Assembly: GCA_019058295.1 (NCBI GenBank)
Contig: JAHPZI010000001.1
Span: 60,686-124,685 of the forward strand
Length of the DNA: 64,000 bases
Source of the DNA: Promethearchaeota archaeon
Lineage (GTDB): Archaea > Asgardarchaeota > Lokiarchaeia > Sigyniarchaeales > SOKP01
Direction of reading: 5' to 3'
The notes beneath the pieces were generated by a model. That model had not been told where the DNA came from. It did no database searches and saw nothing but the letters and a program-made list of their open reading frames with translations. This document shows, piece by piece, positions 33,039 through 60,729 of this stretch; positions within the stretch are counted from its first letter, which is position 1, and every line of letters begins with the position of its first letter. The position numbers and the translations under genes were made by a program.

Positions 33039-34592
33039 TTATTTTTCTGAAGTCACAATAAGATCTTCCTGAGGTGGGGTGAATATTGGAGTACCATTAA
33101 CAACTTTTTCGATATTTTTTTGTCCATCCATTTGTTTTAATTCGTCAGAAATGACGTGGTGTGACATTCCCATAGTATGGAGCATCGAAAGACCCCCTTT
33201 AATTCCTTGTGTACCCAATCGAAATATACATTTAAGCATCCAATTGAACTTACCGAATGGATTGAGATACTCCTTTGCTCTTCTTTTCATCCAAGCTCCG
33301 TCTAAATAATAATAAGAATAGGCTTCTGCAACTAAACGATACATTTCTATATTTGTTAGTTGTTCAGTACGCATCATAGGATGAAATAGGTCGTAGTTTT
33401 TATAATTATGGGTAGTAATCATTCCTTTTAATTTCATCTCGTCGTAAAAAGGAGTTCCGGGGAAGGCAGTTATTGGAGTAAATTGCACGCAATCCATATC
33501 AAGTGATTTAGCATATTGGATATTTTGTCGTACCATTGTCTTAGTTTCACCTGGAAAGCCAATTATTACTCCTCCAAAAATCGATATACCTCTATCTCTT
33601 AGCATTTTTATTACTTTTCTTACCATGGTAGGAGTTAAGTTTTTCTTATTCATCGCATTAAGACTTTTTTGATGAACAGATTCAACTCCAAGGAAAACTT
33701 GCCCAAAATTTGCTTTATCTAAAAGATCTATTAACCATTGGTTGTGATATAAGGTGTCGACGCGAGATTGACAACTAAATTGCATTTTATTATTAACTCC
33801 TGACCGTATGATCGCATCTAATATTTTTTTGGTACGTTTAACATTAATAGTAAAATTATCCTCACAGAAGAATATAAAATTATTTCGCCAATCCACATCG
33901 TAGACTTCTCTCATAATTCTTAGTAAGCTTTTAGTTCGATATACAATATGTTGAGTTGGATCCTTCCACATTTTAATAATACAGCAAAACTTACAGTTAT
34001 GCGGACAACCCCTTGAAGTTTCTACTTGTTGAGTAGTTGTACCTATATAAGAGTAAACTTTACCCTTTAGAAGATCTCGGCGTGGTAAGGGAAAATTGTC
34101 TAAATCACATTCTAATTTTCTCTCGTTGTTATGAATTACATTCCCTTCTTTATTTTTATAAGAGAGACCATCAATATCTTTTAAGGAAATATTATTTCTA
34201 TTGCCATCAATATAATCTATAATTTCTTTAAATGTATGCTCTCCTTCTCCTCTAACGGTATAATCTACAGCAGGATGTTGAGCTACATACTCTGGAACTA
34301 ATGTTGGGTGATATCCTCCAAGAATTGTAGTACAGCCATGTTCTTTAGCCATTTCAGCTACCTCAAAAGCATGATAAATTTGAGGAGTCATACTAGTTAT
34401 AGCAACTACATCATATCGATTTAATTCGCGACGGAATCGTTTTTCTCGGTATTTATCAACTTTGAAATCAAATAATTTTGCGTCATGTTCAGGAACCATA
34501 GCCGCAATTGAAATAAGACTTAATGGGGCTCCTTTAATTATTGAATCAAGTCCAGATTCTAATTTCGCCGGATTAACATATAAAATTTTCAT
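33039..34592 (-). CDS. B12-binding radical SAM protein
   Basis: GGYHPT, GEGE, SRGCPHNCKFC, GVES, FPGTP. Confidence 0.9.
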   Translation of the reverse strand: MKILYVNPAKLESGLDSIIKGAPLSLISIAAMVPEHDAKLFDFKVDKYREKRFRRELNRYDVVAITSMTPQIYHAFEVAEMAKEHGCTTILGGYHPTLVPEYVAQHPAVDYTVRGEGEHTFKEIIDYIDGNRNNISLKDIDGLSYKNKEGNVIHNNERKLECDLDNFPLPRRDLLKGKVYSYIGTTTQQVETSRGCPHNCKFCCIIKMWKDPTQHIVYRTKSLLRIMREVYDVDWRNNFIFFCEDNFTINVKRTKKILDAIIRSGVNNKMQFSCQSRVDTLYHNQWLIDLLDKANFGQVFLGVESVHQKSLNAMNKKNLTPTMVRKVIKMLRDRGISIFGGVIIGFPGETKTMVRQNIQYAKSLDMDCVQFTPITAFPGTPFYDEMKLKGMITTHNYKNYDLFHPMMRTEQLTNIEMYRLVAEAYSYYYLDGAWMKRRAKEYLNPFGKFNWMLKCIFRLGTQGIKGGLSMLHTMGMSHHVISDELKQMDGQKNIEKVVNGTPIFTPPQEDLIVTSEK

Positions 34593-49703: not shown

Positions 49704-51449
49704 TTATTTCTTAGCAAACGGTTCAAGATCCAAATCCATAAAAATACCATCGTTAGATTCGAGTGTTCCTAAAAAGTGCCATTCCCCCTCATCAACGTGA
49801 GCGCCTTTACCATAGAGTTCGGCCATTTTATATAACCTATCAAAATTTTCATAGTGTAAAGCAACTCTATTTTCAGCATAATCTCTTGCTGACCAAGTCG
49901 TCATTAAAAATTGCCAATCACTACTTTCCAAAAGTAAAAGCTCTCGCGCCATTTGTTTTAATATTTTCAATAAATGTTCATCAGCATTATCTTTATATTT
50001 CGCAATGATCTCTTCACTCTTACCTTCACACTCATAAATCTTCTCCCATGTCCAAGTTGTCCATTCATTCAACCACACCCAGTGAGAACTTGCTTGTCCC
50101 CACGAGCCTTCAATGATCTGTACAACTTTATTTGGCGGATTTTCTTCGAGATAAAGCCTTGTGTTAGTTAATTCTATTTCAGGATCATCTTCTATCCATC
50201 TTAATACTCTCGCTAACCACCAATTTCCTTCAAACCACCAATGCCCAAATAATTCACAATCATAAGGAGCAACAATAATTCCGTTGTTCCCAAAATTATT
50301 TTTATAATCTCTCAAGATATCCTTAATGAGATTAACATAATGACTTCCATTTTCATCTAATTTTCTTGGAACATCATCTGGCCAATATAACATTTTTGCA
50401 CCAAGGTCTACTTTTGCACCAGTTACCTTCCAATATCGTAAACCCCCAGGATAGTGCTTTTTATGGAAATCTAAATATTCAGCACAGCCAGGATAACCAT
50501 GTTCACCTGACCATACCACAATCCCTGTCTTTTCATCCCTTGTAAAGAATCCAACAGGGGCTGGGGTAGATGGATCTGTAGATACTAAATAAGCTTCATA
50601 TTGTGATTTTTCAAAAGAAGTGGGAATTTCTTCATATTGCGATTCAAATTGTTTCCAGAGTTCTTTAAGTAAAGGAAACCTCGCAGCATAAACACCTTGG
50701 GACTTTCCACCTAATAAAAGGGTAGTATCAATAAAAAAATATTTAAGACCATTCTTAGCGACAAAATATTCAACCCCAGGTCGTTCATATTCTTCTCTTG
50801 AAATAGGGTTTTTCCATCGATACCCAGGACGATAGCCACATTCTGGAAGCCAAACTCCTGTAGGGGCTCTCCCAAAATGATGTTTATAATTATCAACTGC
50901 TGTTTTAAATTGAGCATCAATTGAAGTATCTTTAGATAATAACGGGCAATATCCATGAGTAGCACCACATGTGATAATATCGATCAAATCCATATCTTGG
51001 AGTTTTTTAAAAGCACCAATGATATCTCTATTAAATCTATGAAGAAAATCGTCTCTTACTCGTTCGTAAAATTCCTCCCACCATTTTGTTAATCTGATTC
51101 TACCTTCTTCAAATTTATTTCTCGTAAAATCGTCGTGATCATGAAATGCTGCACTTACTTTCTCGTCTAAGTAACCGAGGAACCCATTAATGAAAGATGG
51201 ATGTCTAAGCATTTCGCATAATACTGGTGTGAGTCCAATAGTTAATTTAGGATGATATCCATCATCAATCAATTTGTAAAGTTCTTGAAGCAATGGGATA
51301 TATGTCTCTGCAGTAGCTTCATTTACCCAGCTAGTTCCGTGTGGCCATATTCTGGATTATGTGAGAAAAACACATAATTTTCCATGATTTAAGACCCACG
51401 GAAGGTGAGAGTGAAGAACTAAACAAAAACTTCCCAATTTCTCTGGCAT
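49704..51449 (-). CDS. GH57 1,4-alpha-glucan branching enzyme, interrupted by a 30-nt insert (571 aa if removed)
   Basis: ATG 51449 gives MPEKLGSFCLVLHSHLPWVLNHG, in frame with WPHGTSWVNEATAETYIPLL and the 529-aa ORF; catalytic WLPEC and PYDCELFGHWW intact; in-frame TAA at 51357-51359. Confidence 0.9.
51350..51379 (-). other. putative 30-nt BHB-like mRNA intron in the branching enzyme gene
   Basis: TGGA-AAA-TTATGTG-TTTTTCT-CACATAA-TCCA-GAA; removing 30 nt restores HG-x-WPHG; boundaries ambiguous by 1-2 nt. Confidence 0.75.
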
Positions 51450-51696
51450 AAAAACAAAAATACGCAATTTCTTAATAATTTTGCCACATTCAATAAATGC
51501 TAAAAATCTCTAAAAAAAGCACAATTAATCGATTTAATTAATTTAAAATCAGTTTTTTTATTTTACTTTTCATTTCTTAAATACTGTGAGATTTTCTTTT
51601 TTTTTAAAAAACAGAAAAATTTAAGAACTTAAACCATATGCAATTAATAATATATATCCAATTGAAATTGAAAAGAAAATATAAATATTTGATTAA

Positions 51697-53208: not shown

Positions 53209-53910
53209 ATGGCAGTAGATGCAGCTGGAATGATCTTTTTGGTATCATTTTTTATAATATGGGGAGTCTTCCTGATCTGGGATTTCTTTCGTAGAATTTC
53301 ATGAATCTCTCATGAAGTACGCAAAGGAGAAAAATATGGCTTCCTAGCTTACATATTAGCTGTAATTCCAGTTAATATGTTATGGGGGTTCGGTTTCAAT
53401 ATTTTAGGTGTTTATATTGTCCTTTTTGTATTATGGATAATTTGTCTTTTTCGTGATTTAATCTTAGTATATGGCAAAACAAAAGAATATGATGATATAT
53501 TGCTATTTTTAGGAATTGGAATTCTAATTCAAGTAATTTTAACAGGAATACTGCCATATATGAATGAAAGTATGCAAACTAATTGTGTGGCAGCCTGGGT
53601 CTTTTGGTTTCCTGATGTTTATAATCCAAATACAAATGCTATACAAAGTTGGGTTAATGCTAACTATCTATTAGGATTTAGAGTAGCAGCAACAGGCATG
53701 GTAATATTAGCTATTTTACCAATGATCTTAGATTTATACTACACGGAAGAACATGTTAATCTTTTAGCAATAATTATTATAGATTGTGTTTTTGTGGCCC
53801 CTTTTCTCTGGCTGGCATACGTTTGGATGGGAGGCATCGGTTGGCCATTGACTTTCTTATTTGCGGTGCTTTTATTTATAGTTTTATTACTATTAACAAG
53901 AGAGAGATAA
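53209..53910 (+). CDS. multi-pass membrane protein, interrupted by a 30-nt insert (223 aa if removed)
   Basis: ATG 53209 encodes a first TM helix (MAVDAAGMIFLVSFFIIWGVFLIWDFFR) in frame with GEKYGFLAYILAVIPVN and the 177-aa ORF; in-frame TGA at 53302-53304. Confidence 0.8.
53295..53324 (+). other. putative 30-nt BHB-like mRNA intron in the membrane protein gene
   Basis: CGTA-GAA-TTTCATGA-ATCTC-TCATGAAG-TACG-CAA; same geometry as, and 17/30 identity to, the 51350-51379 element. Confidence 0.72.
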
Positions 53911-60123: not shown

Positions 60124-60729
60124 TTGATGGAAAAAAAGGAAAACATTCAGATTTCGCTTGATAATATCAACGAAGATGATATCCCGGATAAAATTCCAAC
60201 GAAATTCATTAATTCGAGAGTTGTCATTTTTAATCCTCTTTATGCCTCTTACTTGTATGTGAAGGAAAAGTTTTTTGGCTCTCCCCTTGGAATAAGTAAA
60301 CCGCGCCTTGAGTATTTCTCAAAACCTTCGGAATTATCGCTTATTGAAGCTTATTACCTATTAGAAAATGATAAGATTACTATTTTTGATGTTAAAAGAG
60401 AAAAAGATCTTAGTGCTAAGGAATTTTTTGAAATTGCCAAACAAATACACCATAAATTTGAGGAAAAATATGTAATTTATAAAGATTTAAGAGAAAAAGG
60501 ATATGTTCCTCGACCAGGGCTGAAATTTGGAGCTGATTTTGTAGTATATAAGAAAGGACCAGGATTAGAGCACTCTCCCTTTATTGTACACGTATTACCT
60601 CATGAATCTAAAATTAGTGCAATCGATATGGTCAGAGCTGGAAGATTAGCTACATCTGTTAGAAAAAAATTTGTTATTGCAAATCCCCAAACTATAAACT
60701 ACTATTTTTTTACGTGGTTTAAGCCATGA
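60124..60729 (+). CDS. endA: tRNA-intron (BHB) splicing endonuclease
   Basis: LSLIEAYYL, Y.DLR.KGY, GLKFGADF.VY..GPG..H, R...SVRK (Tyr/His/Lys triad). Confidence 0.92.
   Translation: MMEKKENIQISLDNINEDDIPDKIPTKFINSRVVIFNPLYASYLYVKEKFFGSPLGISKPRLEYFSKPSELSLIEAYYLLENDKITIFDVKREKDLSAKEFFEIAKQIHHKFEEKYVIYKDLREKGYVPRPGLKFGADFVVYKKGPGLEHSPFIVHVLPHESKISAIDMVRAGRLATSVRKKFVIANPQTINYYFFTWFKP

Follow-up and report, generated by a model that had tools for sequence, protein, structure and literature searches.

The DNA analysed here, referred to as the window, is a stretch of 64,000 nucleotides (nt) from a Promethearchaeota archaeon. Its minus strand encodes a putative glycogen branching enzyme of family GH57, and the gene is interrupted near its 5' end by a 30-nt insert with an in-frame stop codon. 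We suggest below that the insert is a mini-intron. The gene and its predicted parts are as follows.

51449 to 49704, minus strand: GH57 branching enzyme, whole gene, from ATG 51449 to the stop at 49704
51380 to 51449, minus strand: exon 1, 23 codons plus the first base of an Ile codon
51350 to 51379, minus strand: mini-intron of 30 nt, identified by its exact excess over more than 100 orthologs, by related inserts in eight other assemblies and by covariation
49704 to 51349, minus strand: exon 2, 547 codons plus the stop, with the GH57 catalytic and BE_C domains

Translated from ATG 51449, the minus-strand frame reads MPEKLGSFCLVLHSHLPWVLNHG-KLCVFLT-stop-SR-IWPHGTSWVNEATAETYIPLL. The stop is a TAA at 51359-51357; KLCVFLT-stop-SR is followed by IWPHGTSWVNEATAETY, and the frame then stays open for 547 codons up to the stop at 49704. 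An initial annotation, made from the sequence alone, had rightly described this part as uninterrupted, but its count of 529 codons belongs to the TTG-started open reading frame (ORF) of the ORF finder at 51293-49704. The part encoded by exon 1 is beta-strand 1, with the motif HSHLP and NHG. The Pfam domains Glyco_hydro_57 (PF03065, 68.6 bits) and BE_C (PF09210, 84.2 bits) are found in the gene, and the catalytic-region motifs WLPECGY and YDCELFGHWW, read by eye, are in place. Proteins that carry the annotation 1,4-alpha-glucan branching enzyme match this one at up to 87% identity. With both domains, conserved region I and the catalytic Glu/Asp motifs present, the gene is predicted to encode a GH57 glycogen branching enzyme. 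In the host genome (3.2 Mb, 31% GC), which is 79% complete, we detected no further copy of this ortholog, nor a second GH57 paralog of the kind that many relatives have.

The extent of the insert is defined by the orthologs. A search of a protein collection gave thousands of relatives, and the best 120 were inspected, nearly all of them from Asgard metagenome bins labelled Loki- or Promethearchaeota. All of these 120 (53-87% identity) read HxHxP...HG-x-WPHG with no extra residues, and each ortholog with an N-terminus reads ...LPWV(L/I)(N/G)HG(V/I)WPHG..., with no loop between HG and xWPHG. Thus, the window insert is exactly 30 nt. The stop-containing insert reported at 51350-51379 is therefore confirmed, and the expectation that HxHxP followed by HG-x-WP-x-G would be restored by exactly 10 codons less is borne out. 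A natural loop hit by a point nonsense change was considered and rejected, since none of these orthologs has a loop of 10 residues. Owing to a run of A, removal of 51380-51351 gives the same product as removal of 51379-51350. The predicted spliced product has 571 amino acids (aa), like its orthologs, and the predicted peptide over the junction is ...VLNHGIWPHGTSW....

Similar inserts are found in other species. We searched 161 genomes of the class and found the GH57 ortholog in 129; one internal TAA together with 30 extra bases occurs in seven of the 129, these being the host genome (G000) and six species of genus g11. Three database orthologs (P0012, P0025 and P0044) have odd gene calls, shortened at the N-terminus to 539-544 aa. 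For two of them, DNA from public contigs contains an insert of 30 or 29 nt, and these two alleles bring the total to nine; P0012 was left out of the insert comparison at the DNA level. Public gene calls of insert-bearing alleles begin at an internal Met (539-544 aa versus about 571), so that mini-introns would cause systematic mis-annotation. The insert directly follows CAY-GGA in all nine alleles, at site 1 after (N/G)HG in seven and at site 2, 15 nt downstream after WPHG, in the other two (L002, at 206-235, and L036). Its removal leaves an intact ORF of 570-594 aa in every allele, with no second lesion. In L002 the insert is 29 nt long and the exons lie in different frames until it is removed.

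Both exons appear to be functional coding sequence. Between insert-bearing alleles, the ratio of nonsynonymous to synonymous substitution rates (dN/dS) lies at 0.03-0.07 and dS ranges from 1.1 up to saturation; for exon 1 alone the proportions of nonsynonymous and synonymous differences (pN and pS) are 0.06-0.18 and 0.5-0.8. Thus, both exons have been kept as coding since these species diverged. The ortholog alignment and the dN/dS on both exons, which the initial annotation had suggested, found no loop and a constrained exon 1, and the three observations that it named as fatal to its case (relaxed selection, further lesions, orthologs with a 10-residue loop) are all absent. Identity among the inserts is 60-93%, whereas the four-fold degenerate sites of their host genes reach 34-53%. 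The inserts would thus be either constrained or moved more recently than the genes diverged, and either way they do not look like decaying junk.

The insert and its flanks are predicted to fold into a defined structure, the elements of which are listed here.

51356 to 51378, minus strand: intron hairpin h', an 8-base-pair (bp) stem of 51378-51371 with 51363-51356 and the loop UUUUUCU at 51370-51364
51382 to 51384, minus strand: exon half of the central helix H, in which UGG pairs with the intron CCA at 51355-51353
51348 to 51355, minus strand: intron half of H (CCA, 51355-51353) and the 3' bulge (GAAUA, 51352-51348)
51335 to 51403, minus strand: exon-exon outer helix, with 51403-51393 paired to 51346-51335 and UCA 51387-51385 to UGG 51347-51345

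An 81-nt region folds at -26.8 kcal/mol, compared with -13.2 +/- 2.7 for shuffled sequences (z = -5.1; none of 200 as good). Reading in order, the Gly codon GGA is followed by three A, the stem, a 7-nt loop, UCCA and GAAUA. The stem UUAUGUG/CACAUAA is perfect, and an extra A-U pair extends it to 8 bp. The exon UGG of H consists of the third base of the His codon and the GG of the Gly codon. The 5' bulge is AAA (51381-51379), and the predicted cuts lie between 51380 and 51379 and between 51350 and 51349. The AAU at the 3' cut, with the cut after AA, is kept in eight of the nine GH57 alleles, and L036 has AG before the cut and U after it. The outer helix of 11 bp is formed by coding sequence from both exons. 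Intron-less orthologs show this complementarity too, as it stems from the palindromic codons for PW and WPHG.

This fold is supported by covariation. We aligned the nine GH57 inserts with a tenth insert from a neighbouring membrane-protein gene. The three exon-intron pairs and the nine-pair hairpin are 91% paired on this alignment, and pairing falls to 24-52% when the partner columns are slid by 1-3. Compensatory changes on both sides are found in eight of the 12 pairs, six of them among the nine pairs of the hairpin stem, and none of 500 shuffles reaches the observed values. The most telling pair is at the third, synonymous position of the His codon: this base and its intron partner form C-G in seven alleles, and in the other three they form U-A. 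At the peptide level the translated inserts are unalike, whereas the RNA stems covary. When RNAalifold is run without an imposed structure, it returns the hairpin together with an exon-exon helix in two parts, with both junctions in an internal loop.

In archaeal bulge-helix-bulge (BHB) introns, including that of the cbf5 mRNA, the cut falls between bulge residues two and three (PMC2738675). A run of A permits two pairing registers of the motif, one of which has the extra A-U hairpin pair, a 5' bulge A-N-A and the central helix (A)YGG:CCR(N). On this register the cut rule removes 51379-51350 and gives HG-I-WPHG. The 3' cut was placed relative to a four-position central helix, with a mismatch counted as a position. 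In the other register, with the 4-bp helix UGGA:UCCA, the same rule would excise 28 nt and break the frame. Cutting by the rule gives HGMDW in L036, which is invariant in its clade, and not HGVDW; it gives FFRRGEKYG in the membrane-protein gene, matching the closest orthologs; it gives V, the commonest residue at that position, in L001, L037 and L040; and it brings L002 with its 29-nt insert back in frame. The first three of these cases, in which the alternatives differ, favour the register with the extra A-U pair, and cutting after the second bulge nucleotide is predicted to restore both frame and residue. The initial annotation had left open HGIWPHG or HGKWPHG as the restored sequence. The former agrees with the I or V of the orthologs, but the latter is discarded, because its register would give K, D, E or N where the close orthologs all have I or V.

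The 5' half of the motif is canonical, with the 3-nt bulge AAA, the 8-bp h' and the central helix. We classify the whole as a relaxed BHB of the HBh' type: H consists of UGG:CCA, the bulge has 3 nt and h' has 8 bp, and covariation backs these elements. The proposal that the gene works only with the insert removed is supported by the intact alleles, purifying selection, covariation and BHB-like geometry. Its core, that the element is intron-like and not a lesion, holds on this comparative evidence, and the initial interpretation as a whole is supported in part. We therefore consider it probable, with good confidence, that the 30 nt at 51379-51350 are a mini-intron of the archaeal endonuclease (BHB) type in the mRNA of the only ortholog copy detected.

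The insert with its fold, conservation and covariation, the intact host genes under selection and the EndA genes are observed; we infer cleavage and ligation, the exact cut sites and the responsible enzymes as follows. In the transcript, the terminal UGG of exon 1 would pair with the CCA near the 3' end of the intron to form the central helix, with the 8-bp intron hairpin on one side and the pairing of exon 1 with exon 2 on the other. Both splice sites would then lie in A-rich bulges on opposite strands. A heteromeric splicing endonuclease, EndA, would cut after the AA of AAA in the 5' bulge and after the AA of AAU in the 3' bulge, and an RtcB-type ligase would join the exons to yield ...NHG-I-WPHG... 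and the 571-aa enzyme. The two putative endonuclease subunits are encoded as follows.

60124 to 60729, plus strand: EndA, catalytic (alpha-like) paralog, PF01974 with 108 bits, Tyr, His and Lys at the motif positions (by eye)
Contig C26 of the host genome, L046 1426-2031, minus strand: EndA, second, beta-like paralog, without the catalytic His (read by eye)

The EndA gene of the window sits 9 kb from the intron-bearing genes, and the two paralogs fit the alpha/beta pair as expected. Asgard EndA is reported to have the (alpha-beta)2 form with an L1 loop that allows cleavage of relaxed motifs (PMC5829648).

Several observations weigh against this interpretation. The motif is not a strict BHB: H has three standard pairs and an A.G mismatch, the 3' bulge has 5 nt (GAAUA), and H drops to two standard pairs in 4 of the 10 family members, so that geometry alone does not fix the cut sites, which are placed by the consensus of the orthologs. 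The host assembly, at its 79% completeness, yielded no RtcB. Within the window genus, the insert is confined to the host genome and that of L001, and the long-term upkeep of the window allele is therefore judged from the family. In the metatranscriptome X19 we found no contig of this organism that bridges the junction. This data set contains near-identical pieces of the gene body, and the sole piece that reaches the insert is about 89% identical, belongs to a relative and ends at 51352; a piece in the metatranscriptome X20 is from an intron-less relative. As these pieces do not bridge the junction, nothing on splicing is concluded from them and splicing is still a prediction. The protein collection contains no spliced-form protein of the window gene.

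All five relatives that were tested, including three intron carriers, do have RtcB. In one relative of the same genus (G051, contig C13, about 33460-33488; L165 211-239, plus strand), a hairpin insert of 29 nt splits the RtcB gene itself, with GVGY before it and DINCG after it. The putative exon-joining enzyme of that relative would therefore need its own mRNA spliced.

Two other protein genes of the host genome carry similar inserts.

53209 to 53910, plus strand: membrane-protein gene, family unassigned, with exon 1 at 53209-53294 and exon 2 at 53325-53910
53295 to 53324, plus strand: predicted second mini-intron, 30 nt, in the membrane-protein gene, 48 bits to the family model, TGA inside
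Contig C1 of the host genome, about 158861-158890 (L041 1718-1747), minus strand: insert in the gene for uS11, the removal of which restores GCG-ATG-CAG

The membrane-protein gene lies 2 kb from the GH57 gene on the opposite strand. The two inserts are identical at 17 of 30 bases and have the same design. In full-length orthologs of the membrane protein (223 aa), the sequence over the junction is ...WDFFRRGEKYGF.... The database also has four clusters of 177 aa that begin at MLWG..., which suggests the same insert and shortened gene calls in other metagenomes. In uS11 the 30-nt hairpin insert, with an in-frame TAA, lies inside the SSPYAAMQ motif, and its helix register is unlike that of the GH57 family. 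Since the genome has no other uS11 gene, removal of such inserts must be within the organism's abilities. A covariance model built on the 10 family members found only its own two members in the host genome; it misses mini-introns of the uS11 type because their sequences are too different. Genome-wide scans for BHB hairpins with frame restoration, with and without a codon-usage filter, gave no excess of correct-frame candidates (for example, 2154 in the correct frame versus 2208 and 2236 in the shifted frames). AT-rich intergenic hairpins swamp the signal, and the mRNA introns of this genome are therefore uncounted. A degenerate-pattern scan of metagenomes gave chance matches, none of them in a GH57 context.

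The tRNA introns of the host genome, as called by ARAGORN, are 28-31 nt long. That of tRNA-Pro(GGG) (C21:216760-216865) has 30 nt at position 37/38, and its layout is CUGG, GGC cut after GG, an AAAUUAU hairpin, ACAG, and AUG cut after AU. The GH57 insert is almost congruent with it, having AUGG, AAA cut after AA, a AUUAUGUG hairpin, CCAG, and AAU cut after AA. The central helix of the tRNA-Pro(GGG) intron is also imperfect, with three of four pairs. When the two intron sequences are aligned, their score ranks within the top 0.5% among 10,168 background hairpins. This likeness is suggestive but not significant, and we thus propose that the two are parallel in structure, without claiming descent. 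A short-word BLAST search of the host genome with the inserts gave noise only. According to a 2026 preprint, Asgard archaea have a heavy load of tRNA introns and have gained them repeatedly. On contig C22 (30303-33335) of the host genome, 27 intron-less tRNA genes, including tRNA-Ile(UAU), lie within 3 kb; outside this array, few tRNAs are detected unless introns are permitted. The array could be part of a mobile element or a second, intron-free tRNA set.

Other explanations of the insert were weighed against endonuclease splicing. It could be a recent inactivating insertion that made a young pseudogene, too young for further decay. The closest allele (L011, 92% identical, same genus) has no insert, so that the insert is either young or lost in L011, and no spliced RNA is seen in the two metatranscriptomes. 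We nevertheless regard this as unlikely. The same element family has been kept in other species at dS above 1 and dN/dS of 0.03-0.07, with all nine alleles free of lesions, and the window insert itself has the full set of conserved features, including the exon-matched UGG:CCA helix. The failure to detect a second ortholog copy in the host genome at 79% completeness, and the similar insert in the essential uS11 gene, also speak against a pseudogene.

Potentially, the insert could be removed from the RNA by means other than EndA and RtcB, that is, by another nuclease-ligase pair or by self-cleavage. The 3' half of the motif is non-canonical with its 5-nt bulge, and the enzymes are assigned by prediction, with RtcB not found in the host assembly. 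However, size, design and cut rule are those of the genome's own tRNA introns, and both EndA subunits are present; moreover, 30 nt is too small for any known self-splicing intron, and the insert has no Rfam match above noise. Removal by such means is thus quite unlikely. A group I or II intron, with its ribozyme core of hundreds of nt, or an intein, with its in-frame protein-splicing domain, was rejected on the length of 30 nt, the stop inside and the same lack of an Rfam match.

Translational bypassing of the T4 gene 60 or byp type would leave the insert in the mRNA, with take-off at GGA and landing 30 nt downstream. The insert does have a take-off-like codon GGA as in gene 60, a hairpin next to it and a stop within the gap, and in L037, L038 and L039 the final three gap bases are also GGA. 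However, take-off and landing codons are unmatched in six of the nine alleles (AGA, GAA, AAA, ACA), and the stop does not adjoin the take-off codon, since the codon after GGA is AAA or GAA. Endonuclease splicing predicts the exon-intron covariation and the parallel to tRNA introns, whereas hopping does not, which makes bypassing very unlikely. Finally, an assembly or sequencing artefact, or stop read-through with a tolerated 10-residue loop, is hardly credible and appears already refuted in practice: though the independent DNA runs X2 and X3 have no coverage of 51316-51560, the artefact is ruled out by eight further assemblies, independent of this one, that have related inserts at this codon, the 29-nt insert of L002 breaks the frame and makes read-through or a tolerated loop impossible in that allele, and the translated inserts are dissimilar while the RNA stems covary.

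To our knowledge, endonuclease-spliced introns in archaeal protein genes are textbook rarities, essentially confined to cbf5 of Crenarchaeota. We found no reports of BHB introns in Asgard protein-coding genes in the literature searched, which left most subscription journals outside. The cbf5 pre-mRNA intron (Watanabe 2002; Yokobori 2009, PMC2738675) is alike in its host with a heteromeric EndA and in its patchy gain and loss. In contrast, the window host is an Asgard (Lokiarchaeia-like) archaeon and the host gene a metabolic one, and the family of about 30 nt occurs at two neighbouring sites of one gene across species and in an unrelated neighbouring gene. Splicing of cbf5 was shown by cDNA, whereas the GH57 case is known from DNA comparison. 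Archaeal tRNA introns, with tRNA-Pro(GGG) as the example, share the 28-31 nt, the xUGG, the 3-nt bulge, the AU-rich hairpin, the xCAG and the bulge; the tRNA-Pro(GGG) and GH57 introns both have a three-of-four central helix and presumably the same enzyme. The GH57 intron differs in its mRNA host, in an outer helix that is coding and does not adjoin the central helix, and in a 3' bulge of 5 and not 3 nt. HAC1 and XBP1 also contain a small non-spliceosomal mRNA intron (26 nt in XBP1), removed by an endonuclease and a tRNA-type ligase with restoration or change of frame. There, however, Ire1 cuts twin stem-loops, a tRNA ligase or RtcB joins the ends, and splicing is regulatory, a role of which GH57 shows no sign. 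The bypass elements of T4 gene 60 and the Magnusiomyces mitochondrial byps are stop-containing hairpin inserts of 27-55 nt with GGA at the 5' edge, and they too sit in genes that are otherwise intact; they differ from the GH57 inserts, in which most alleles have unmatched take-off and landing codons and the exon-intron pairing covaries.

If RNA confirms splicing, Asgard genomes would be systematically mis-annotated, and truncated calls (539-544 aa for the GH57 gene, 177 aa for the membrane protein) are already public. Splicing of mRNA by the tRNA machinery would then be part of regular gene expression in the lineage closest to eukaryotes, which would bear on the origin of interrupted genes and of RtcB-type mRNA splicing (XBP1/HAC1). 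Recurrent gain at one codon would also be a tractable case for how archaeal introns arrive, a route left open by the 2026 preprint on Asgard tRNA introns.

The history of the inserts is uneven. On the protein tree, insert-bearing GH57 alleles are scattered among insert-free ones. L011, the sister of the window allele, has no insert, and the same is true of the sister of L001; in genus g11 one clade mixes four bearers and two non-bearers. The site-2 alleles L002 and L036 are not sisters on this tree, and their inserts share 83-90% identity with the one that L040 has at site 1. This scatter and the identity across sites indicate repeated gain, loss or short-range relocation. The suggestion that splicing serves to control glycogen branching finds no support, given the patchy presence and the 92%-identical sister without the insert. 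Most likely, the element would be a neutral or selfish passenger that was repeatedly gained or lost, and no regulator.

A wider possibility, to which we give somewhat less than even weight, is that these elements of about 30 nt form a mobile family of tRNA-intron-like mini-introns that colonises Asgard protein genes at sites mimicking the BHB of the anticodon loop. Here such sites would be CAYGGA next to palindromic CCATGG codons, with the same codon used across genera. Tentatively, the 15-nt jump within one gene and the hits in the essential uS11 gene and in the RtcB of a relative may be read in the same way. In that case, use of the tRNA-splicing machinery on mRNAs would be routine among the prokaryotes nearest to eukaryotes.

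Over the first 120 nt (51330-51449), the window allele and L011 differ at 19% of positions, compared with 10% overall, and the changes cluster at the insertion site (TTAAATCATGGA versus TTGGGACACGGT). A co-conversion tract or homing was rejected, since other windows of the GH57 gene are equally mosaic. Recombination is likely, with no established tie to the arrival of the intron. The exon-exon helix shows no co-evolution with the intron, the mean energies being -15.8 kcal/mol in bearers and -15.2 kcal/mol in intron-less alleles (p = 0.29). The Gly codon is GGA in all seven site-1 bearers and in 12 of 25 non-bearers. The insertion site thus looks intrinsically permissive and foldable, and not adapted to the intron.

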